Position numbers and translations under genes: made by a program
The notes under the pieces: generated by a model
Told to the model about the DNA's origin: nothing
The model's database searches: none
What the model saw: the letters and a program-made list of their open reading frames with translations, nothing else
Shown: positions 1,793-60,600 of the stretch, in pieces
Layout: every line of letters begins with the position of its first letter
Numbering within the stretch: position 1 is the stretch's first letter
DNA from: Vicinamibacterales bacterium
GTDB taxonomy: Bacteria; Acidobacteriota; Vicinamibacteria; Vicinamibacterales; UBA8438
Direction: 5' to 3'
Assembly: GCA_965208165.1 (NCBI GenBank)
Contig: OZ242323.1
Location: 1,364,078 to 1,428,077 of the forward strand
Length of the DNA: 64,000 bases

Positions 1793-2782
1793 TCACACCG
1801 TCGACCGCAGCCGTCGCCCCAGCACGGTCAGCCGGTACTTCTGGTTCCTGGCGTTGGGTGCGTCGGGGCGGGTCATCTCCACGTACCCGTCCTGCAGCGC
1901 GGGCGACAGGTAGCGTTCGCGCAGCGACTTGCGGTCGCTGAGGCCGAGAGCATGGAGGATGTCGCGCCGCGACATCTCGCCGGTCAGCACGGACAACAGG
2001 CGCCGGACTTGGGGGGTTATATGGGGGGCTTCCTGGGGGGTCCGGACCGCGGCGAGAATCGCGTCCAGCATGAAGGCGACGAAGCGCGTGCTCTCGCCCT
2101 CGGCGGAGCTCTCCCGGATGGCCTGGTAGTACTCGCTCTGCCGGGCGCGGACGAGGCTCTCGACGGGCACGGAGGCGAACAGGGTCTTCCAACGGGTCAG
2201 GATCAGCGTCTGCCAGAGCCGGCCCATCCGCCCGTTGCCGTCCTCGAAGGGATGGATGAACTCGAACTCGTAGTGGAAGACCGAGCTGGCGATCAACGGG
2301 TGCTCGTCGGTGCCGCCGAGCCACGCCAGCAGCTCGGCCATCAGCGACGGCACACGCGCTGCCGGCGGGCCCACGTGGTGGACCCGGTCCTGGCCCATCA
2401 CCGCCACACTGCCGCGACGATAGTGGCCGGGGGCATCCACGAGGCCGGTCATCAGGACCTCGTGGGCGTTCAGCAGGTCGGCCTCGCTGGCCGGGTCCCA
2501 CCGCTCGTAGCGATCGTAGGCCTTGATGGCGTTCCGGGCCTCCTGAACGTCCCTCAACGGGGCGACGACGGGCTTGCCGTCGAGAATCGTGGAGATCTGC
2601 TCCTCGGTGAGGATGTTGCCCTCGATGGCCAACGAACCCTGGATCGAGCGGATGCGGTTGATGCGCCGTAGTCGAAGATCCTGTGAGAGGCCACCCGCCT
2701 CGGTGCGGCCGACCGCTTCCGCGATCTGCGCGACCCGGGACAGTATGCCCGTGGTGATGCGGTAAGGCGGTTCGTGGCTCAT
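1793..2782 (-). CDS. Fic family protein (class II, AMPylation/filamentation domain)
   Basis: Fic active-site motif HPFEDGNGRMGR; N-terminal inhibitory S-x-x-x-E-G/N motif (SLAIEGN). Start MSHEPP at 2782; the longer track ORF has an unsupported 5' extension. Confidence 0.85.
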   Translation of the reverse strand: MSHEPPYRITTGILSRVAQIAEAVGRTEAGGLSQDLRLRRINRIRSIQGSLAIEGNILTEEQISTILDGKPVVAPLRDVQEARNAIKAYDRYERWDPASEADLLNAHEVLMTGLVDAPGHYRRGSVAVMGQDRVHHVGPPAARVPSLMAELLAWLGGTDEHPLIASSVFHYEFEFIHPFEDGNGRMGRLWQTLILTRWKTLFASVPVESLVRARQSEYYQAIRESSAEGESTRFVAFMLDAILAAVRTPQEAPHITPQVRRLLSVLTGEMSRRDILHALGLSDRKSLRERYLSPALQDGYVEMTRPDAPNARNQKYRLTVLGRRLRSTV

Positions 2783-2825
2783 GCTTCTCACCCGACTCAA
2801 CGGCGCGACGGTGGGTGATGCGCGG

Positions 2826-3203
2826 CTACGCCGCCATCGTACGGATGCCGTAGAGCGGAATCCGCGCATCGCGGGTGACGACCACCAGCCCCTCCACCTG
2901 CGCCTGCGCGACCAGCATCCGGTCGAACGGATCGCCATGATGGGGTGGAAGTGCGCCGGCCTGCTCCGCGTGCTGGAACGTAAGGTCCAGCGGGAGGAAA
3001 CCCTGCTGCCGGACGCCGGCTTCCAGATCGTCCGGGGCCTCGAGCTTGCCCAGCGCCCGCTTGATTGCGATCTCCCAGCCGCTGACCGCGCTGACGAAGA
3101 TGTCGTTGTGCGCATCAGCCAGCGCCGCGCGCGTCCCGCCGCTCAGCTTCCGCGGCTCGGTCAGCGACCAGAGCAGCGCGTGCGTGTCCAGCAGCAGGCG
3201 CAC
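2826..3203 (-). CDS. vapC: PIN-domain toxin VapC
   Basis: PIN N-terminus (V)RLLLDTHALLW...; GTG start overlaps the upstream antitoxin stop by 4 nt. Confidence 0.75.
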   Translation of the reverse strand: MRLLLDTHALLWSLTEPRKLSGGTRAALADAHNDIFVSAVSGWEIAIKRALGKLEAPDDLEAGVRQQGFLPLDLTFQHAEQAGALPPHHGDPFDRMLVAQAQVEGLVVVTRDARIPLYGIRTMAA

Positions 3204-3205
3204 GA

Positions 3206-3463
3206 CTACTCTTCCTCTTCGCCGGGGAATATTCTCGAGTTCCAGAACGCCTCGATCACGTCCGGCGGCGTCTCGTCGAAGTCCGGAGCCATCCAGATTT
3301 GGCCTTCCAGCGCCCCGAGCCTGCGCTTGGCCTTCGGTTCGCGGTAGGGGACCAGCCGCAGATACGGCTCGCCGGCCTTGGCGATCACGACGTCCTCCCC
3401 CGCCCACGCCGCCTTCGCAAGCCGCGAGAGCTGCGACTTCGCCTCGTGCATGTTCACCTTCAT
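3206..3463 (-). CDS. Phd/YefM-family antitoxin
   Basis: MKVNMHEAKSQLSRLAKAA..GEDVVIAKAGEPYLRLVP is typical of a prevent-host-death antitoxin. AAGGAG RBS upstream; 4-nt overlap with VapC. Confidence 0.7.
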   Translation of the reverse strand: MKVNMHEAKSQLSRLAKAAWAGEDVVIAKAGEPYLRLVPYREPKAKRRLGALEGQIWMAPDFDETPPDVIEAFWNSRIFPGEEEE

Positions 3464-3478
3464 CGGTCTCCTTCGCGC

Positions 3479-3498
3479 CCTAGCTAGACCTAGCTAGG
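3479..3498. promoter_or_regulatory. putative operator: CTAGCTAG-AC-CTAGCTAG double palindrome upstream of the Phd-VapC-Fic operon
   Basis: Two copies of the palindromic octamer CTAGCTAG, 2 nt apart, about 16 nt upstream of the antitoxin RBS. Typical position for an antitoxin autoregulatory site. Confidence 0.4.
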
Positions 3499-3555
3499 TT
3501 ACAGTCGCGCCATGGCCTCGTCAAGCGGGTGTTCCGGAGGGATGCCGGGCGAGCG

Positions 3556-3996
3556 CTATCCCGGCTGCGGCGGCGTGTGGACGATCTCGTACTTGATGCC
3601 CTCGGGGTCCTTGAAGAAGAGCGCGTAGTAGCCCGGCGGGACGTACTCGGGGAACTCGCGCGGCGGGATCACGATCGTGGCTCCGATCTCCTTCAGCTCG
3701 AGATGCAGCCGATCGACCTCGGCGCGCGACTCCGCCCTGAACGCGAGGTGATGCAGCGCGCCGGGCCTGCGGCGGTTGACGGCATCGCCCCGGAACGCGC
3801 TCCTCGGCGAGTTGATGGCGAAGCCCAGCCGCGGATGCAGGTACTCGACGACGTGCAGCTCGTGATCGTCCAGCACGGCGCTGTTCCTGCTCTCGAGATC
3901 GAAGCCGAGGAGCGGAAGCAGCTTGTCGTAGAAGGGCACCGCGACGCTCATGTCCTTCACGGTGATCTCGATGTGGTCGATCATCGGCTCCATCAC
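3556..3996 (-). CDS. VOC (glyoxalase/bleomycin-resistance/dioxygenase) family protein
   Basis: MIDHIEITVKDMSVAVPFYDKLLPLLGF...; size and pattern fit the VOC fold. Confidence 0.8.
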   Translation of the reverse strand: MMEPMIDHIEITVKDMSVAVPFYDKLLPLLGFDLESRNSAVLDDHELHVVEYLHPRLGFAINSPRSAFRGDAVNRRRPGALHHLAFRAESRAEVDRLHLELKEIGATIVIPPREFPEYVPPGYYALFFKDPEGIKYEIVHTPPQPG

Positions 3997-5924: not shown

Positions 5925-6136
5925 CGCCGCCGGGTCGAAGCGAGACGCCGCCGGGTCGAAGCGAGACGCCGCCGGGTCAAAGCGAGACGCCGCCGGGTCG
6001 AAGCGAGACGCCGCCGGGTCGCGAGAAGCCGGCCGGGTCAAAGCGAGACGCCGACCGGGTTGAAGCGAGACGCCGGCCGGGTCGAAGCGAGAAACCGGCC
6101 GGGTCGAAGCGAGAAGCCGGCCGAGTCGGAGCAGAG
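5925..6136. repeat. tandem repeat, 21-bp unit x about 10 (GCCGGGTCGAAGCGAGACGCC)
   Basis: Head-to-tail copies that degenerate toward the 3' side; intergenic. Confidence 0.85.
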
Positions 6137-10407: not shown

Positions 10408-11463
10408 TCATGCGGGTTCGGCGGCTACCTGGCGAGCCGCGGCAAGGGCGCGGTCGATGTCTGCGAGCGAGACGTCGAGGTGGGTGACGGCCCGGATCGC
10501 GCCGCCGGCCCCGCTCAGGCGGACGCCGGACGCGGCGAGGCGGTCGAGAAACTCCCGATTGCTCAAACCCAACCCGGTGGCGTCGAAGAACACCATGTTG
10601 GTGTCCGGCACCGAGGTGCGGACCTTGATGCCGTCGATCTCGGCCAGCCCGCGGGCGAGTCGGCGGGCGTTCTCGTGGTCCTCCACGAGACGGTCGACGT
10701 GGTGGTCAAGGGCGTACAGGCACCCCGCGGCGGCGATGCCCGCCTGCCGCATGGCGCCGCCGAAGAGCTGCTTGTAGCGGCGCGCGCGCGCGATGAACGC
10801 GGCCGTCCCCGCGAGCACGGCGCCGATGGGGGCGCCGAGCCCCTTGGTGAAGTCGATCCACAAGCTGTCCACCCGGGCCGCGACCGCGGCGGCGGGGACG
10901 CCGAGGGCCACGCAGGCGTTCAGCAGCCGCGCGCCGTCCATGTGCAGCGGCACGCGGCGCGCCCGCGCGCAGGCCGCGACGGCGTCGAGCGCCTCGAGCG
11001 GCCACACCGCGCCGCCGCCGAAGTTGTGAGTCTGCTCGACGCAGACGAGCCCCACGGGCTGGCCGTAGGGCTCGGGCACGGCGACGACCCGGTCCATCGC
11101 CGCCTCGAGCTCGGCCGCGGTGAAGATGCCGCGCTCGGTCCGGATTCCCTCCACGATGACCCCGGAGGCGAGGGCGGCCCCGCCCGACTCGGCGCGGATG
11201 ACGTGGGCCATCCAGTCGGCGACGAGGGCGTCGCCGGGCCGGGTGTGGGTCTTGACCGCCACGAGATTGCACATCGTGCCGGTGGGCAGCCACAGGGCCG
11301 CGTCCTTGCCGAGCAGCTCGGCCACGCGTGCCTGCAAACGGATGACGGTGGGGTCTTCTCCTTTCTGCTCGTCTCCGACCTCGGCCGCCGCGATGGCCGC
11401 GCGCATGCCGGGCGTGGGCCGGGTCTCGGTGTCGCTGAAGAGTGGAATGACGTGGTCGGACAT
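10408..11463 (-). CDS. ltaE: low-specificity L-threonine aldolase (PLP-dependent)
   Basis: MSDHVIPLFSDTETRPT...LPTGTMCNLVAVKTH...HMDGARLLNA matches threonine aldolase signature regions. Confidence 0.85.
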   Translation of the reverse strand: MSDHVIPLFSDTETRPTPGMRAAIAAAEVGDEQKGEDPTVIRLQARVAELLGKDAALWLPTGTMCNLVAVKTHTRPGDALVADWMAHVIRAESGGAALASGVIVEGIRTERGIFTAAELEAAMDRVVAVPEPYGQPVGLVCVEQTHNFGGGAVWPLEALDAVAACARARRVPLHMDGARLLNACVALGVPAAAVAARVDSLWIDFTKGLGAPIGAVLAGTAAFIARARRYKQLFGGAMRQAGIAAAGCLYALDHHVDRLVEDHENARRLARGLAEIDGIKVRTSVPDTNMVFFDATGLGLSNREFLDRLAASGVRLSGAGGAIRAVTHLDVSLADIDRALAAARQVAAEPA

Positions 11464-11653
11464 GGCGTGTCGCTTCGGGTTCCGTCCCCTGCGCGGAGGG
11501 ACGGCAGATTGGTCATGGTGCCTCGCGGCCAACGATGACAAACGGTCCTGGACATTCCGGCGGTTTCGCGGGGGACGGGGCGGGTGTGCGCTGATCCCCG
11601 GCCCCACCGCTCGCGTGGCGGAGCGATCGGTCGTCCGTGTGGTCCCGATTGGA

Positions 11654-11771
11654 GCTAGGAGTCTGCGCCGCAGGAAATTTTCGCCCCAACATGAAGTGGT
11701 TAATTCCAGTGCCAACCACAACATGCAGTAGCCGATCGGGCCCAAGACCGTTCCACGGCGCAGACTCCTAG
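11654..11771. repeat. 118-bp AT-rich element bounded by perfect 16-bp inverted repeats CTAGGAGTCTGCGCCG
   Basis: The IRs sit at 11654..11669 and 11756..11771; the interior is about 45% GC in a 70% GC genome. The element abuts the MITE-like copy A. Confidence 0.5.
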
Positions 11772-11879
11772 TGTCCCGCCACCGTGGTTCGAGGAACAAT
11801 CCTGTGCGGCACTACTTTAGTCTTGCAGGCAGTTACCGCGATCCAGAGCTTTCGCGAAACTTCACGGCCCCGACACTAG
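11768..11879 (+). mobile_element. MITE-like 112-bp element, copy A (TIR CTAGTGTC...GACACTAG)
   Basis: 8-bp perfect terminal inverted repeat. About 80% identical over its full length to 60489..60600, and in reverse to 60079..60185. Confidence 0.55.
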
Positions 11880-12460
11880 AAGATGGCGATCGGGTTCACC
11901 GGCGACCCCGTGCCGCCCGGCACCCGTAGCGGGGCCACCACCAGCAGGAACTCCCAGCGGTTGAGCCGGGCCGCGGTCTCGGCCGCCGCGTCGAGGTCGA
12001 TGTTGTCGAGCAGGTTCATCCCGCGCGCGACGATGGCGAAGCGGTGGATGGGGTTGACGCGCAGCCCCGGCACGCTGTCGGGCGCCTCGTGCACCGAGTC
12101 GGCCCCGAGCAGGGCGATGTCGCGCTCGGCCAGGAACGGGATGACCGAGGCGTCCCACCCCGACATCTCCCGCGTCGGCCCCACCGCCTCGCGGTAGGCC
12201 CAGCGGCCGGTGCGCAGCAGCAGCGCGTCGCCCGGCCCCAGCCGCACGCCGGCATACTCTTCCCACGCCTCGATGTCCTCGCGGTACAGCTTCGTGCCCG
12301 GCTCGAGGTACGGCACGCCCTTCAGCCGGGGCATGTCGACGAGCACCCCACGCGTCACCAGGCCGTCCCTCATCTGGGTGGTGTCCATCAGCGAGGGGTG
12401 CGGCTCTTTTTCATCGGCGATCGAGGGGTCCATGGGCTTCTGCGAGGAGCATGGCAAGAC

Positions 12461-14080
12461 CTACTTGATCCGTCGAAGGCGGGGTGAGGGTGGTGGGGGC
12501 GGCTCGGCGACGGGCGGTACTATCCCGTCGGCGTAGCGCTGGGCGTGGTTCCGTTCGTACTCGCGCGCTTCGTGGAAGGTCCAGTACGCATCGAAGTCGC
12601 CGCTGGCGCGCAGCGCCCGGAGCTTCAACACCGCCTCGGCCCCGACCAGGCGCCACCGGGCGCCGGTCAATTCCATCCGGTCGCGGACGAGGTGCCGGCA
12701 CGCCCCTTCGACAACGCCGGTGGCGATGGGATAGCCCGCCGCGAGGTAGCGGTCGTAGTGCAGATACGGTGCGTACTTCAGCAGGTAGTCCGCGCACGTA
12801 TCGACCGGCTTGCGGGTGTCGGGCGACAAGCCGGCGACGGTCGCCGCACGCCGCATCGACGACGCCACCTGGCGGGCCTTGCCCTCGAGAATGTCCCGCA
12901 CCCGCGTCCACGCCCAACACGCCAGCTCGGGGCTCCCCTCGCGATGGAATACGCGCGCCGCCTTCCAGACGTACTCGACCACGTGGATGATGTCCAGGAC
13001 CACCGTGACCTCCACCCCGAATTCTGCGGCGCCCGCTTCCACCAGGTCGAGCTGCGTCTCGGCCCCGTCGACGAGCACCACCCAGCGCTTGACGCGCTTC
13101 GGGTCGTGGCGCTCCGCTTCCAGCATCGCCTCGACGATCACCTCCCCGGGCTCCCGTTCGAGGCTCGCCCAGACCCGTTTCGCCACCGGGCGGGGCCGCA
13201 CCGCCGGGGGCGCGGCCTTCTTGCCCTTGCCCTTCTTGGTCTTGTCCCCCGGCTGTCGGGGCATCAAGCTCTGCAGGAACTCCTCCGCACTCCGCACGAA
13301 CGGCGCGACCGTGTAGACGGCGGCCACCGTCGCCATCCGCTTCGAGTGCTTCTTCTCCCCCGGCTTGAGGCGATTGAACGGGGAGAGCTGCTCCCGTTGC
13401 CGCCGACGCCGCTCGGCCTCCTTGCGCGTCGCCTCGCGCAGGTCCTCGCGATGCAGCACCACCCCCTTGCCGTCGAAGGTGAGCACGACAACCGACTCCT
13501 CCGGGGCCGGCTCGCCCGTCGCCGCACGGCGGGCTTCGTAGAACGCGTCGAAGTCCACGGCCGCGCGAGCCGCCAACTGCTCCGCCTGACGCTTCGGCAC
13601 CTCCGCGCCGGTACTCCGGGACAGATCGAACAACGCTTCGTCGAAAGACCGCGAGGCCGCCGCCTCCGCCACCCGCCGACGCACCTCCAGCGAGTAGCGC
13701 TCCACCGGCAGATTGAGCGACGCATCGAGCGGATGGAGACTATCGTGACCGGGGCGCGCATAGCCCACGCGACCGACATCCACCGTCCCGAAGACCGTCT
13801 CCACCGCGCGTTTGTGCACGCGCCGTTCCCGGCGCTCGACACCATCAGACCCCGCGACCGGACCCGCCGCCTCCCCAGGACTGCGTTGGTCGAGGTGACC
13901 TTGCAGCAGCTTCTGCATCAGCTCCTGGCCCCGCCGGTGCAGCTCCCGTTCGAGATCGCTCTCACTCATCTGCCGGGCCTCACGCGAAGAGAGGTAGGCT
14001 TTGGCCTCCGCAAAGGCCTCGTCCGCCGCCGCATACGGCGCCGGTGCGGATGCCGCGGCGGGGTGGGGAACAACTCGCAC
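12461..14080 (-). CDS. ISKra4-family transposase
   Basis: 539 aa; C-terminal GACRHLVRDRMELTGARWRLVGAEAVLKLRALRASGDFDAYWTFHEAREYERNH is characteristic of ISKra4-like transposases. Confidence 0.8.
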   Translation of the reverse strand: MRVVPHPAAASAPAPYAAADEAFAEAKAYLSSREARQMSESDLERELHRRGQELMQKLLQGHLDQRSPGEAAGPVAGSDGVERRERRVHKRAVETVFGTVDVGRVGYARPGHDSLHPLDASLNLPVERYSLEVRRRVAEAAASRSFDEALFDLSRSTGAEVPKRQAEQLAARAAVDFDAFYEARRAATGEPAPEESVVVLTFDGKGVVLHREDLREATRKEAERRRRQREQLSPFNRLKPGEKKHSKRMATVAAVYTVAPFVRSAEEFLQSLMPRQPGDKTKKGKGKKAAPPAVRPRPVAKRVWASLEREPGEVIVEAMLEAERHDPKRVKRWVVLVDGAETQLDLVEAGAAEFGVEVTVVLDIIHVVEYVWKAARVFHREGSPELACWAWTRVRDILEGKARQVASSMRRAATVAGLSPDTRKPVDTCADYLLKYAPYLHYDRYLAAGYPIATGVVEGACRHLVRDRMELTGARWRLVGAEAVLKLRALRASGDFDAYWTFHEAREYERNHAQRYADGIVPPVAEPPPPPSPRLRRIK

Positions 14081-14083
14081 GGC

Positions 14084-15001
14084 TCAACCCTCCCGAAGCC
14101 GCCGCTTCGCATCCCGGACCAAAGGATAGACCAGAACCGTCTTGGGCGCCTCGCCGACACGGCGGCCGTACCGGTCCATCCGCCCTCGACCGGCCGTGGC
14201 GCCCAACGCCACCCAGTTGGCGGCGCGATACGAACCGCCGTGGTGCCGGCTCGGGTCCACCAGCGTCTCCACGAGCCAGGGCTCGAGGCCGTAGCGGCGC
14301 GGCCAGTCGACCATCAAGTGCCCGAGCCCGCGCGACAGGACTGCGCTGGCCAGGTTCCTCACCCCGACCCACGGCAGCAGCAGGAAGCGGCTGTTGTTGA
14401 CCACGTGCTGGAGATTCCGCGCCCGAGTCGCGTCGTCCCAGCCGACCCAGCCATCCCGCGCCGCCATCCGCCACGCCGGGCTGGAGAACTGCAGGCAGCC
14501 GACCACCACCCGCTGAGGCCTCGCCGCGAACACCAGATAGCGCAGGTGGGCGCCGAAGGGGACCGTGTGCCCGAGGTAGTGGTAGCGGCCCACGAGCTCC
14601 CGGAACAGCAGGCGCTCGGCCGGCTCGCGTACCAGCTCGACATCCAGCGGCTCGACGTCGCGCACGCTGCCGACGAGCGGGCAACCCGGCTCTCCCGCCG
14701 CCGTCCGGGGCACGCGGGTGACCGAGCCGGGGGCGCGGCCCAGGCGCTTGTCCGGCAGCGCCACCGCACCCTCCGCGTCGAGCCGCTCCAGGAACTCGCG
14801 GCACTCGCGCGCCTTCAGCCTCCCGTTCGGGCGCCGCCACCGCAACAGCTCGCACACCGTGCGCGCCAGCTCCATCCGGCTCAAGCCCGGACAGTCCCGC
14901 ACGACCTCGCGGATCAGCGTCATCTCTCGCCCGCTGAAGGTGCGTCCCGAGAATCTCGTCGTCGCAGCCGCCATCGCAGGGGCTTTCCTTCCCCACGACA
15001 C
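14084..15001 (-). CDS. IS passenger protein (DUF4338-like)
   Basis: 305 aa; ends 4 nt before the transposase start; lies inside the IS inverted repeats; ...LVGRYHYLGHTVPFGAHLRYLVF...NLQHVVNNSRFLLLPWV. Family call from memory. Confidence 0.6.
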   Translation of the reverse strand: MSWGRKAPAMAAATTRFSGRTFSGREMTLIREVVRDCPGLSRMELARTVCELLRWRRPNGRLKARECREFLERLDAEGAVALPDKRLGRAPGSVTRVPRTAAGEPGCPLVGSVRDVEPLDVELVREPAERLLFRELVGRYHYLGHTVPFGAHLRYLVFAARPQRVVVGCLQFSSPAWRMAARDGWVGWDDATRARNLQHVVNNSRFLLLPWVGVRNLASAVLSRGLGHLMVDWPRRYGLEPWLVETLVDPSRHHGGSYRAANWVALGATAGRGRMDRYGRRVGEAPKTVLVYPLVRDAKRRLREG

Positions 15002-15748
15002 CGTACCAAAACGCCGCGCGAATGTCCAGAGGGAGCGCCGGACGGGAAGACCGGAGCGCGCCGGCGTCGTGATCAGGCCGGGCGAAGGCCCGAAAGCGGC
15101 GGGTGGAGACGCTGGCCGGAAGCTGTCCCCGGCCAGAGCGCACTAGCGAGCGCGGGCCCCGTGGGCATAACTCCTTATGAATGAGTGAGATAACATTCTA
15201 CGCAAAAGAGCCGCACCCATCAGCGAGCAGCCGTCCTCGGTGACCACGTCGCGGAAGTCGAGGCCGTTGTAGAGCCTGTCCTTGTAGAAGACGTGGCACA
15301 GCCCGTCGAGGTGGGAGTAGCTCACGCCGTGGAAATAGACCTCGACCCGGTCGCCCGAGTTCTGCCCCTCGGGATTGACGTTCATCTGCAGCACATAGGG
15401 CTCGGCCGCGTCGGGCGCTTCCTCGGTGAGGAAGTCGTGGGACAGCGACACGGTGGTGCCGGTCCGAACGAGGGCCGCCGCCTCGCGGCGCTTCTCGTCC
15501 GTCATCAGGTTGGCGGCGCCGATCTGGTCGTCGTCGCCCCACCGGCCCCAGTTCGACAGCTCGTCCATCCACCGGTCGAACTGCGCGATGCTGACCGGCT
15601 CGCGCTCGGGCGACTGGGCCGGTGCGTCGGCGGTCGACCCGACCAGGCCGAGTCCGGTGATGCCCGCCACGAGTATCGATGTTCTCCTCATGTTGCTCTC
15701 CCTGCGCCCGGTTCGGTGTTGGCCTGCTGGCGTCAGTGCGGTGAGATG

Positions 15749-16045
15749 TCACCAGCCGAGGAACTCCCAGCGCACGATGTGCGACGCCATGAAGACGAAG
15801 TCGCAGAAGACGTACATAACAGCCGTTCGCCGGAGGAGGAGCGGGTACCCGGACCGCAGGCAGACGGCCGAAGCGCACAGGAGCAGCCCCGCTGGCACGA
15901 CACCCTTGTGGAGGGTGTCGTCCGGGACCGGCCAGGTGGCCGCGACCACGAGAACGGCGAGCGGCGCCATTGCCCACGCCCGCCGCCGCAGAAACGCAAG
16001 GCCCTCCCGCAACCCCTCTCGCGCGTCGGGCTGCACCCACTTCAT
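15749..16045 (-). CDS. hypothetical small membrane protein
   Basis: 98-aa ORF with two hydrophobic segments in a locally lower-GC spacer; no homology recognised. Confidence 0.3.
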   Translation of the reverse strand: MKWVQPDAREGLREGLAFLRRRAWAMAPLAVLVVAATWPVPDDTLHKGVVPAGLLLCASAVCLRSGYPLLLRRTAVMYVFCDFVFMASHIVRWEFLGW

Positions 16046-16096
16046 CGCTCGACCTCCTCGGCCGATCCTGCGGTCGCCGGTCCCAAGGTGCGGTCC

Positions 16097-16470
16097 GGTT
16101 CACGCCAGTCCAAGCACCTCCTCCATCACCAGTCGCGGCCCGCGGTCGTGGTCCCGCACGACGTTGCGCGTCCGGTTTCACGCGAGTCCAAGCACGTCTT
16201 CCATGACCAGCCGCGGACCGCGGTCGTGGTCCCGTACGACGTTGCGCGTCCGGTCTCACGCGAGTCCAAGCACCTCCATGACCAGCCGCGGACCGCGGTC
16301 GTGGTCCCGTACGACGTTGCGCGTCCGGTTTCACGCGAGTCCAAGCACCTCCTCCATGACCAGCCGCGGACCGCGGTCGTGGTCCCGTACGACGTTGCGC
16401 GTCCGGTCTCACGCGAGTCCAAGCACCTCCTCCATGACCAGCCGCGGACCGCGGTCGTGGTCCCGCACGA
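16097..16470. repeat. tandem repeat: 75-bp unit x5 duplicating the 3' end plus stop codon of the carboxylesterase gene
   Basis: Unit GGT(Y)TCACGCGAGTCCAAGCACCTCCTCCATGACCAGCCGCGGACCGCGGTCGTGGTCCCGTACGACGTTGCGCGTCC; one copy is 72 bp. Each copy encodes ...RDHDRGPRLVMEEVLGLA* on the minus strand. The last copy is the genuine gene end. Confidence 0.85.
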
Positions 16471-18076
16471 TGAGGCTCTCGTTGTCGAAGATCATCGCCT
16501 GCCGGGTGTCCGCGGCGTAAACGGGCCAGTGCGGCAGGTCCCGGGTGTCGGGGTTCCCGGTGCGGGCGAACGCCGTCCACGCCGCGCTCATCCGGCCGGC
16601 GAGAACGCGCGCGGCCGGCGATCCGGGCAGATCGAACAGCCGCGTCTCGGTGTGGTCGACGTTGTCGAAGACGAAGCGAATCTCGAGGGCGTGGGGCGTC
16701 TTCATCTCGCCCCCCATGTCCCAGTCGAAGCGGTAGAGCCAGGCGGGGGCGCCGCCCTGCGCGGTCTTCCGCGCCGCGAGCTCGCGCGCGTACATGCCGC
16801 GCGGGTGGTCCGTGCAGATCAGGATGTAGAGGTCCCACGGGCGCGCGTCGGGGTAGGCGTCGCGATAGGCGGTGACGACGCGGCCGGCGTCGGCGTCGCT
16901 CCGCAGCCGTGCCGCCATGCGCCCCTGCAGGTCGGTCTCCGTCATGTCGAGCGGCATCTCGCGGCCCCGCCACCACAGCGTCTCCTCGGTGCGGTTGTAG
17001 CCGACGATCACCGGCACGTCTCTCGAAATCTCGGCCGCCGCCGGATCGAAGGGATGAACCGGGATGAAGCGGCCGTCGAGCACGGGGGTGCTGCCGGACA
17101 TGCCGACCACGTGCTCCTCCGGCTCGAAGTCGCCGGACACCTCGGTGAATGCCGCGAACAGCCGGTCGGTCGGGACCGCCTGCAGATCCCGCGCCTGGTC
17201 GGCGCGCAGCCCGAGCTTCGCGAGCAGCAGCTCCGCCTCGCGGGTCGCATCGGACGCATGGCGAACGCGCAGCACCGCGCCGCTCTGGATGATCGCGCGG
17301 TGGAAGAGGCCCTTGGCGTCGGGCATCGCGAGCAGGGTCGAGACCTTCCGTCCGCCGCCGGACTCTCCGAACACGGTCACCCGGCCCGGATCGCCGCCGA
17401 ACGCCTCGATGTTGTCGCGTACCCACTTGAGGGCGGCGACGACGTCGAGCATGCCCGTGCAGCCGGACGCCGCGAAGTCGTCGCCGGCCAGCTCGGCGAG
17501 GTACGCCGACCCGAAGATGTTGAGGCGGTGGTTGATGGTGACGACGACCACGTCGCTCCGGTTGCACAGGTTGACGCCGTCGTAGGTGGCCGAAGACCCG
17601 GAGCCGGAGCTGAAGCCGCCGCCGTGCAGCCAGACCATGACCGGCCGCCGGCCACCGTCGCCGAGCCCCCGCGTCCACACGTTGAGGAAAAGGCAGTCCT
17701 CGCTGGCGACGGGCTGGGAGCGACCCTGCGGCGCCGCCGCGCCGTAGTCCAGCGCGTCGCGCACGCCGGTCCACGGCGCCGGCGCCGCGGGCGGCATGAA
17801 CCGGTTCCGCCCCCCCGTCGGTGCGCCGTATCGAACCCCCTTGAAGACGTGGACGCCCGCGCGGACGGCGCCTCGGACGCGGCCCGCGGTTGTCTCGACC
17901 GTCGCGCCCGAGGCCGTCTCCTGGCCCCACGCGGAAACGGTCGCGGCCGGCTCGCCGTGCAGCAGCCGTGCCGCGCCGCCGGCGGCGGCGAGGCCCGACG
18001 CCCGGCGCAGGAACCCGCGTCGGCTCCAGAGGTCGTGGCGTGTGGTCGCGGAGCCGGCGTGATGCGTTGCTGTCAT
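16409..18076 (-). CDS. carboxylesterase/lipase type B family, Tat-secreted
   Basis: Tat motif SRRGFLRRASGLAAAGGAA; FGESGGG nucleophile elbow (GESAG-type); EDCLFLNVW. Confidence 0.9.
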   Translation of the reverse strand: MTATHHAGSATTRHDLWSRRGFLRRASGLAAAGGAARLLHGEPAATVSAWGQETASGATVETTAGRVRGAVRAGVHVFKGVRYGAPTGGRNRFMPPAAPAPWTGVRDALDYGAAAPQGRSQPVASEDCLFLNVWTRGLGDGGRRPVMVWLHGGGFSSGSGSSATYDGVNLCNRSDVVVVTINHRLNIFGSAYLAELAGDDFAASGCTGMLDVVAALKWVRDNIEAFGGDPGRVTVFGESGGGRKVSTLLAMPDAKGLFHRAIIQSGAVLRVRHASDATREAELLLAKLGLRADQARDLQAVPTDRLFAAFTEVSGDFEPEEHVVGMSGSTPVLDGRFIPVHPFDPAAAEISRDVPVIVGYNRTEETLWWRGREMPLDMTETDLQGRMAARLRSDADAGRVVTAYRDAYPDARPWDLYILICTDHPRGMYARELAARKTAQGGAPAWLYRFDWDMGGEMKTPHALEIRFVFDNVDHTETRLFDLPGSPAARVLAGRMSAAWTAFARTGNPDTRDLPHWPVYAADTRQAMIFDNESLIVRDHDRGPRLVMEEVLGLA

Positions 18077-20560: not shown

Positions 20561-20764
20561 TTGGGACAGTGATCGACATAAGGTTGCCAACTGCAACTGG
20601 GCGCAACCCGTTTCTCACCGTTTCGGGCGCTTGGCGCGTGGCAAGGTAATTTCCGTCATTAGTTGGGACAGTGATCGACACAGGGTTGCCAACTGGACTC
20701 GGGCTCAGCCCGTATTCTACGGTTTCGCGCTCCAGGCAGACGGCAAGGCAATTCTCGTCAGTGT
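20561..20764. repeat. two tandem ~102-bp direct repeats upstream of nthA
   Basis: TTGGGACAGTGATCGACAyAgGGTTGCCAACTG... occurs twice head-to-tail between the NTF2-like gene stop and the nthA promoter region. Confidence 0.7.
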
Positions 20765-60078: not shown

Positions 60079-60185
60079 CTATTGTCCCGGCCGTGAAGTT
60101 CGCGAAAGCGCCGGATCGCTGTAAATAACCGTAAACACAGAACAACTGCCGCGTAGAATTGTTCCGCGAACCACCGTTCGACACC
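60079..60185 (-). mobile_element. MITE-like element copy B (reverse orientation, one end degenerate)
   Basis: Reverse complement aligns with copies A and C (..GGCCGTGAAGTTCGCGAAAGC..GGATCGC.. / ..TTGTTCCGCGAACCACC..). Confidence 0.5.
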
Positions 60186-60488: not shown

Positions 60489-60600
60489 CTAGTGTCCCGC
60501 AACTGTGGTTCGTGGAACAGTCTTGAGCGGCATTACTTCTGTTTTTGCAGTCACTTACGGATACCAAAACCGCTCACGAACTTCACGGCCGGGACACTGG
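60489..60600 (+). mobile_element. MITE-like 112-bp element copy C (TIR CTAGTGTCCCG / CGGGACACTGG)
   Basis: Same length and orientation as copy A; 10 of 11 bp terminal inverted repeat. Confidence 0.55.

Follow-up and report, generated by a model that had tools for sequence, protein, structure and literature searches.

A short inverted-repeat element with IS1182-family termini in a cyclase-aldolase spacer of a Vicinamibacterales genome

The AT-rich palindrome described here, designated E1, is very probably a non-autonomous MITE, which carries the termini of IS1182-family IS elements and was most likely moved in trans into a CTAG tetranucleotide. This assignment is based on the presence of homologous copies at unrelated sites, on termini of the IS1182 type and on the absence of the element from relatives. 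Mobilisation in trans, the duplication of CTAG and the order of insertions are what we infer from these observations. With this reading an odd AT-rich palindrome can be explained as routine mobile DNA, and the family of the partner IS can be named. In the following, the window means the whole 64-kb stretch of DNA that was analysed, and positions without a locus name refer to it. E1 comprises the following features:

11655..11771, no strand: E1, 117 bp, very probably a MITE of IS1182 type, including both flanking CTAGs; recognised by the pair of 16-mers and by 12 homologues elsewhere
11655..11670, plus strand: left terminal inverted repeat of E1, CTAGGAGTCTGCGCCG, whose first four nucleotides, CTAG, are the presumed duplicated target
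11756..11771, minus strand: right terminal inverted repeat of E1, an exact reverse complement of the left repeat
11671..11755, no strand: interior of E1, non-coding, 85 bp, 51.8% GC
11690..11725, no strand: internal stem-loop of E1 (CATG..GTGGTT / AACCAC..CATG), which lengthens the fold-back

Extent of E1 and recurrence of its termini

The initial annotation had described an element of 118 bp at 11654-11771 with perfect 16-bp inverted repeats. The repeats were found as described, at 11655-11670 and 11756-11771, and they match at 16 of 16 positions; the end at 11771 was also correct, but the start lies one base later, at 11655, and the length is 117 bp. E1 is AT-rich relative to its genome, as had been noted, with a GC content of 56.4% for the whole element compared with 71.2% for the window. 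The figures given for the interior (about 86 bp, roughly 45% GC) have to be replaced by 85 bp and 51.8%. The longest ATG-initiated frame in E1 consists of 26 codons, and the element contains no ORF of note and no transposase gene. It is present in one copy in the window: beyond the two ends of E1 no further match to CTAGGAGTCTGCGCCG was found there, even when up to three mismatches were allowed. An IS1182 transposase was not detected in the window by tblastn, and comparison of E1 with the PLSDB plasmids in distant mode gave no match.

When one genome from each of 185,579 species was scanned for exact occurrences of CTAGGAGTCTGCGCCG, the 16-mer was found in at least 119 genome stretches. Among the matches listed, 72 were in MAGs labelled Vicinamibacter, and the other hosts listed were other Acidobacteriota, Longimicrobiales, Gemmatimonadota, several Gammaproteobacteria, Chloroflexota and others; the terminus is common to elements across phyla. 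Eighteen inverted pairs of CTAGGAGTCTGCGCCG among the matches listed were spaced 1588-1710 bp apart, and each enclosed a single ORF of 440-471 aa. Of these ORFs, that of locus L010 (440 aa) was scanned against profiles. It scored 370 bits on the NCBIfam IS1182 model (NF033551, cut-off 270) and also matched Pfam DDE_Tnp_1, DDE_Tnp_1_6 and DUF772, and its predicted product is, by these profiles, an IS1182-family transposase. This IS of about 1.6 kb, copies of which lie at L036:6150-7737 and L038:2076-3663 in Vicinamibacterales, is common in soil members of that order and is also present in other soil and marine bacteria. Five identical IS copies were present in one Longimicrobiales MAG, which indicates recent activity of the IS in that genome. 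The matches listed contain 147 exact 16-mers, of which 44 are IS ends, 30 lie in an 84-nt unit, 10 in 117-bp elements and 8 in 166-bp elements, whereas the remaining 55 are unclassified and can be other derivatives, copies cut at locus edges or chance occurrences.

Twelve further copies of E1, 115-121 bp long and surrounded by different flanks, could be aligned with it over the full length with 63-96% identity. The genome scan contributed, among the matches listed, eight of these homologues (L113, 80% identical to E1, and L024, L064, L093, L019, L090, L038 and L025, 63-74%). Four more were obtained by a paired-terminus scan of JGI metagenomes (L138, 95.7%; L134, 94.0%; L136, 90.6%; L135, 78.6%), the three copies with 91-96% identity coming from another metagenome; a first metagenome pattern, built on the interiors of E1 and L113, had given zero matches. 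The MAG OY282382.1 harbours five 117-bp copies together with one 1588-bp IS, to which one of the copies is joined through a common CTAG. The full-length homologues at unrelated sites and the termini of an IS1182-family IS bear out the proposal, made in the initial annotation as one of several, that the element represents a second MITE family.

Short derivatives bounded by CTAGGAGTCTGCGCCG have lengths of about 57, 84, 117 and 166 bp. Vicinamibacterales MAGs contain the 84-nt repeat unit in abundance, frequently as tandem copies and frequently beside 117-bp MITEs. The unit is composed of a 37-nt fold-back, CTAGGAGTCTGCGCCG-TAGAA-CGGTGCAGACTCCTRG, and about 47 nt (CAGGGTTGGTTGGGCGCC...GACGATGGGCGGG), and was seen at L029:794-963, L057:6531-6700, L134:1620-1707, L135:225-397 and about 30 other loci. 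A class of 166-167 bp, in which the same 16-nt termini enclose unrelated interiors, occurs in Pseudomonadales and in non-Vicinamibacter Acidobacteriota (L044:994-1160, L033:4754-4920, L012:329-494 and L032:3543-3708), and a class of about 57 bp with the same termini was found at L094, L097 and L099. For the annotation of Vicinamibacterales genomes this means that repeats of 57-166 bp sharing one 16-nt terminus will interfere with assembly and with searches for intergenic motifs.

The cyclase-aldolase locus and its relatives

E1 is located between the 3' remnant of a cyclase gene disrupted by an IS and a region of about 190 nt upstream of a gene for a low-specificity threonine aldolase (PF01212; 11463..10408, minus strand). 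The features on the cyclase side of E1 are the following:

11768..11879, no strand: E2 ('MITE copy A'), 112 bp, unrelated to E1, with CTAG at both ends
11768..11771, no strand: CTAG common to E1 and E2 (element junction)
11876..11879, minus strand: outer CTAG of E2, whose TAG terminates the 3' fragment of the cyclase; relatives use TGA
12396..15218, minus strand: ISKra4-family IS inside the cyclase gene, 2823 bp; inverted repeat of 15 bp, duplication of 9 bp

The cyclase (PF04199) is encoded in two pieces, residues 155-330 by 12406..11879 and residues 1-161 by 15691..15218, and its 3' part, on the minus strand, ends at 11876. The ISKra4-family IS has the inverted repeat GGGTGCGGCTCTTTT (15 bp) and the duplication ATCAGCGAG (9 bp), and its 539-aa transposase (12464-14080, minus strand) scored 341 bits on NF033572, for which the cut-off is 205. 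A second ORF of this IS, 387 aa long (13983-15143, minus strand), had no Pfam or NCBIfam match. The insertion is missing from L001, a contig of metagenome ERZ21861969 that is 99.5% identical to the window and carries E1 (100% identical) as well as E2.

Neither E1 nor E2 was found in L002/L003, where the aldolase is 97% identical, or in L123, L126, L132, L133 and L140-L142 (91-93%). The spacer between cyclase and aldolase is 176-350 nt long across all these loci. In L123, L126, L132, L133 and L140-L142 the cyclase is intact (327-330 aa) and the spacer has 176-314 nt, compared with 412 nt in the window. The spacer of L002/L003 is not homologous to that of the window and contains a 59-nt repeat (L002:455-572), which is a local tandem duplication; it was searched for elsewhere and not found. 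Thus, E1 shows presence/absence polymorphism among close relatives, and its position, judged from the sequences compared, is clearly not conserved. The initial annotation had considered that a 16-mer unique in the genome, together with conservation of the region in position among relatives, would favour a regulatory hairpin over mobile DNA; what was found are relatives without E1.

When E1 and E2 were deleted in silico and one CTAG was kept, the spacer could be aligned with that of the relatives on its cyclase side and over about 70 nt before the aldolase ATG, its middle aligning poorly. The empty site obtained in this way is GCCATCTTCTAGCTCCAATCGGGACC. At the junction the relatives have TTCTGA(A)TC..., whereas the window has TTCTAG+CTCC+AATC..., with six extra bases (AGCTCC). 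An exact empty site was not present in any of the seven groups of aldolase relatives, in all of which the cyclase stops at TGA and CTAG is lacking, nor did an all-against-all comparison of element flanks, which included all retrieved loci and the window, reveal one. Because no clean empty site was recovered, we speak of CTAG as the presumed duplicated target.

The spacer had also been taken for an insertion hotspot, and this claim is partly right. Two MITEs lie at one CTAG, an ISKra4-type IS is found 0.5 kb away in the cyclase gene, and in two relatives this spacer has undergone tandem duplication independently. At L142:1147-1340 a stretch of about 64 nt, which takes in the end of the cyclase gene, is present three times in tandem. 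E1 is probably neutral at this locus, and it implies no new biology for the neighbouring genes. Other repeats of the window include 21/22-nt tandem repeats at 5925-6132 and two moderate-GC direct repeats of 98 nt with 76% identity within 20561-20760. Arrays with 78-nt and 99-nt periods are present as well (at 16042-16503 and 398-905) and may be coding repeats.

Folding of E1 and alternative explanations

Folding of the region, proposed as a check in the initial annotation, yielded a very stable fold-back, whose predicted energy is -62.8 kcal/mol for the gene strand, at a z-score of -7.7, and -49.8 kcal/mol for the complementary strand. Over 13 copies the pairing of the E1 interior was kept in 82% of cells, compared with 47% at most when the partners were slid; in this test, for which E1 itself provided the structure, 23-28 of 500 shuffles reached the observed values. 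Pairing in the internal stem-loop at 11690..11725 was kept in 78% of cells over the 13 copies. The central stem alone displayed three pairs with compensatory changes, and RNAalifold, applied to the E1 family, returned the terminal stem only, with no compensatory pairs. No sites were found at E1 by a sigma-70 promoter scan. A terminator scan detected one weak terminator-like stem inside E1, on the gene strand, a count that does not exceed that of shuffles (0.4 ± 0.7), and the U-run that is expected after the main stem of an intrinsic terminator is absent. The scans indicate no promoter or terminator activity for E1. A scan of 10500-13000 with the Rfam covariance models gave no match at E ≤ 1. 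Fold-back structure is a generic property of MITEs. The structure of E1 corresponds to the usual MITE fold-back architecture, and the pairing data are weak evidence for selection on it.

It is very unlikely that the whole family sharing this terminus (the 117-bp MITE, the 84-nt unit and the 57- and 166-bp classes) has been co-opted and is not purely selfish. The conserved fold-back and subterminal boxes would then serve as RNA or DNA structures between genes, for example as transcript punctuation or as binding sites for nucleoid or host factors, a role to which we assign a similarly low probability. If it were true, the element chains seeded by CTAG would constitute a self-extending intergenic module.

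Another possibility, which we consider very unlikely, is that E1 itself, mobile or not, has been co-opted as a structured part of the cyclase-aldolase transcript (terminator, attenuator or stabiliser) or as a small RNA. The high stability of the fold-back, the retention of interior pairing with a few compensatory pairs and the single terminator-like stem on the gene strand could be explained in this way. However, E1 is missing from relatives that are 91-97% identical in the flanking genes, and copies of E1 reside in unrelated contexts. The covariation is weak, being matched by some of the shuffles and measured on a structure derived from E1, the terminator scan gave one stem where shuffles gave 0.4 ± 0.7, the main stem lacks a U-tract behind it, Rfam gave no match, and a fold-back is what MITEs have in general. 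The regulatory or attachment hairpin of the initial annotation is not supported, for the first of these reasons and for the lack of an Rfam match.

Even less can be said for the view that E1 is a one-off remnant of a full-length IS that lost its interior in place, no mobile short family being involved; we regard it as highly improbable. It would account for the identity of the E1 termini with those of a 1.6-kb IS and for the single copy in the window, but the 12 copies of the same length found elsewhere share the interior of E1, three of them at 91-96% identity and five in one MAG, and this interior matches no sampled IS interior. The likeness between E1 and the sampled ISs extends over the 16-mer and roughly 5 nt more (YAGRA); beyond this, similarity to the 3' ends of certain IS copies is confined to about 13 nt at the left end of E1. 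As the interior is held in common with other 117-bp copies and not with the sampled ISs, the solo-TIR remnant of a deleted IS suggested in the initial annotation is not supported either. The possibility that E1 is a simple internal-deletion derivative (type I MITE) of a sampled IS was also considered, and was ruled out by an interior unrelated to the sampled ISs. The true parent IS of E1 may be unsampled.

E1 is the sole perfect inverted repeat of at least 16 bp with a loop of at most 200 nt in the window. In 40 simulations under a first-order Markov model, such repeats arose at a mean of 0.125 per window. The E1 repeat is therefore only moderately improbable when judged by the window alone, and the decisive evidence for E1 being real is the recurrence of the same termini elsewhere. 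This simulated frequency might speak for an intergenic palindrome that arose by chance, but such an origin is refuted: the same 16-mer is present in at least 119 genome stretches, where it forms the termini of ISs and MITEs, and metagenomes contain the paired pattern with a homologous interior.

Shared CTAG junctions and related elements

E2 represents a MITE family of its own, with a length of about 112 bp. Its ends, CTAGTGTC...GACACTAG, are inverted, and two more copies are present in the window at 60489-60598 and 60079-60177. The statement of the initial annotation that E1 abuts this element with a CTAG common to both proved to be accurate (11768-11771). A single CTAG common to abutting elements was observed in five independent places. 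These are the E2/E1 pair of the window, a MITE/IS pair in L038 (MITE 1963-2079 and IS 2076-3663, overlapping by the shared CTAG), an 84-nt unit/E2-like pair in L027 and 84-nt unit/MITE pairs in L134 and L135. At L027:1616-1728 the E2-like copy adjoins an E1-type terminus via the common CTAG. All IS and MITE copies that were compared have CTAG or a one-base variant of it at both ends, and no further direct repeat outside. This pattern is as would be expected if CTAG were the target and were duplicated at insertion; because CTAG is palindromic, the sequence looks the same whether all 4 bp or just the 2 bp TA were duplicated.

CTAG occurs 15 times in the 64 kb, whereas base composition would predict 168 occurrences and trinucleotide counts 73. 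When CTAG sites were checked as amber stops of real genes, long open frames were seen to be common at high GC. Since CTAG is scarce and each insertion adds a new target, chains of elements are to be expected. In the mechanism that we propose for E1 as a MITE, a DDE transposase of the IS1182 family, produced from another site of the genome or in the past, would bind both termini of E1 and insert the element into a CTAG tetranucleotide, with one CTAG resulting at each end. In a 71% GC genome in which CTAG is depleted about ten-fold, every insertion would create a second CTAG, and the ends of resident elements would offer sites at which another element that seeks CTAG could insert. The end-to-end position of E1 and the unrelated E2 at one CTAG, and of MITE pairs in a high-GC genome more generally, would then have a simple reason, namely that the scarce target is remade by each insertion.

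Correia elements of Neisseria, IS630/Tc1-type MITEs and other MITEs that target TA or CTAG are associated with a transposase superfamily different from IS1182. Like all of these MITEs, E1 has a fold-back and a palindromic target that would be regenerated at both ends, so that abutting or nested insertions are possible.

Closer counterparts in terms of the IS family are the ISMac2-related, IS1182-derived MITEs of Methanosarcina acetivorans, which are 160 and 169 bp long (PMC3852290). E1 resembles them in being short and non-coding, in having dispersed copies and in sharing identical termini with an IS1182-family IS. For the 160-bp MITE a direct repeat of 4 bp is given (PMC3852290), which is compatible with the CTAG of E1. 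In contrast to the ISMac2 MITEs, E1 resides in a member of the Acidobacteriota (Vicinamibacterales) and not in an archaeon, it is shorter (117 bp), its interior does not recognisably derive from a sampled IS, and several size classes share its termini. The partner ISs (1588-1710 bp), which were compared by description, fall in the size range of two IS1182-family elements, ISPse1 of Paracoccus seriniphilus (1653 bp, 16/16 inverted repeat, 4-bp direct repeat; PMC3281130) and ISPsy36 of Pseudomonas syringae pv. actinidiae (1666 bp, palindromic 4-bp target GGCC; PMC8027508). They have a single long ORF, and the ORF of L010 encodes a predicted IS1182-type transposase, as in the family of ISPse1 and ISPsy36. 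Unlike the GGCC of ISPsy36, the presumed target of the E1-type elements is CTAG.

Two minor observations concern CTAG itself. A repeat of the form tgctgcgtcatg...gaatgttcggg...cgtcaacgattgcg begins right after a CTAG beside E1-type elements (L136:3650 onward, L027:1729 onward and L135:100-165), which suggests a further CTAG-associated family. Four of the 15 CTAGs of the window are clustered at 3480-3497 as CTAGCTAGACCTAGCTAG, which includes the 12-bp perfect palindrome ACCTAGCTAGGT. This cluster is situated just upstream of the start of a minus-strand gene and could be an operator or the footprint of CTAG-targeting elements.
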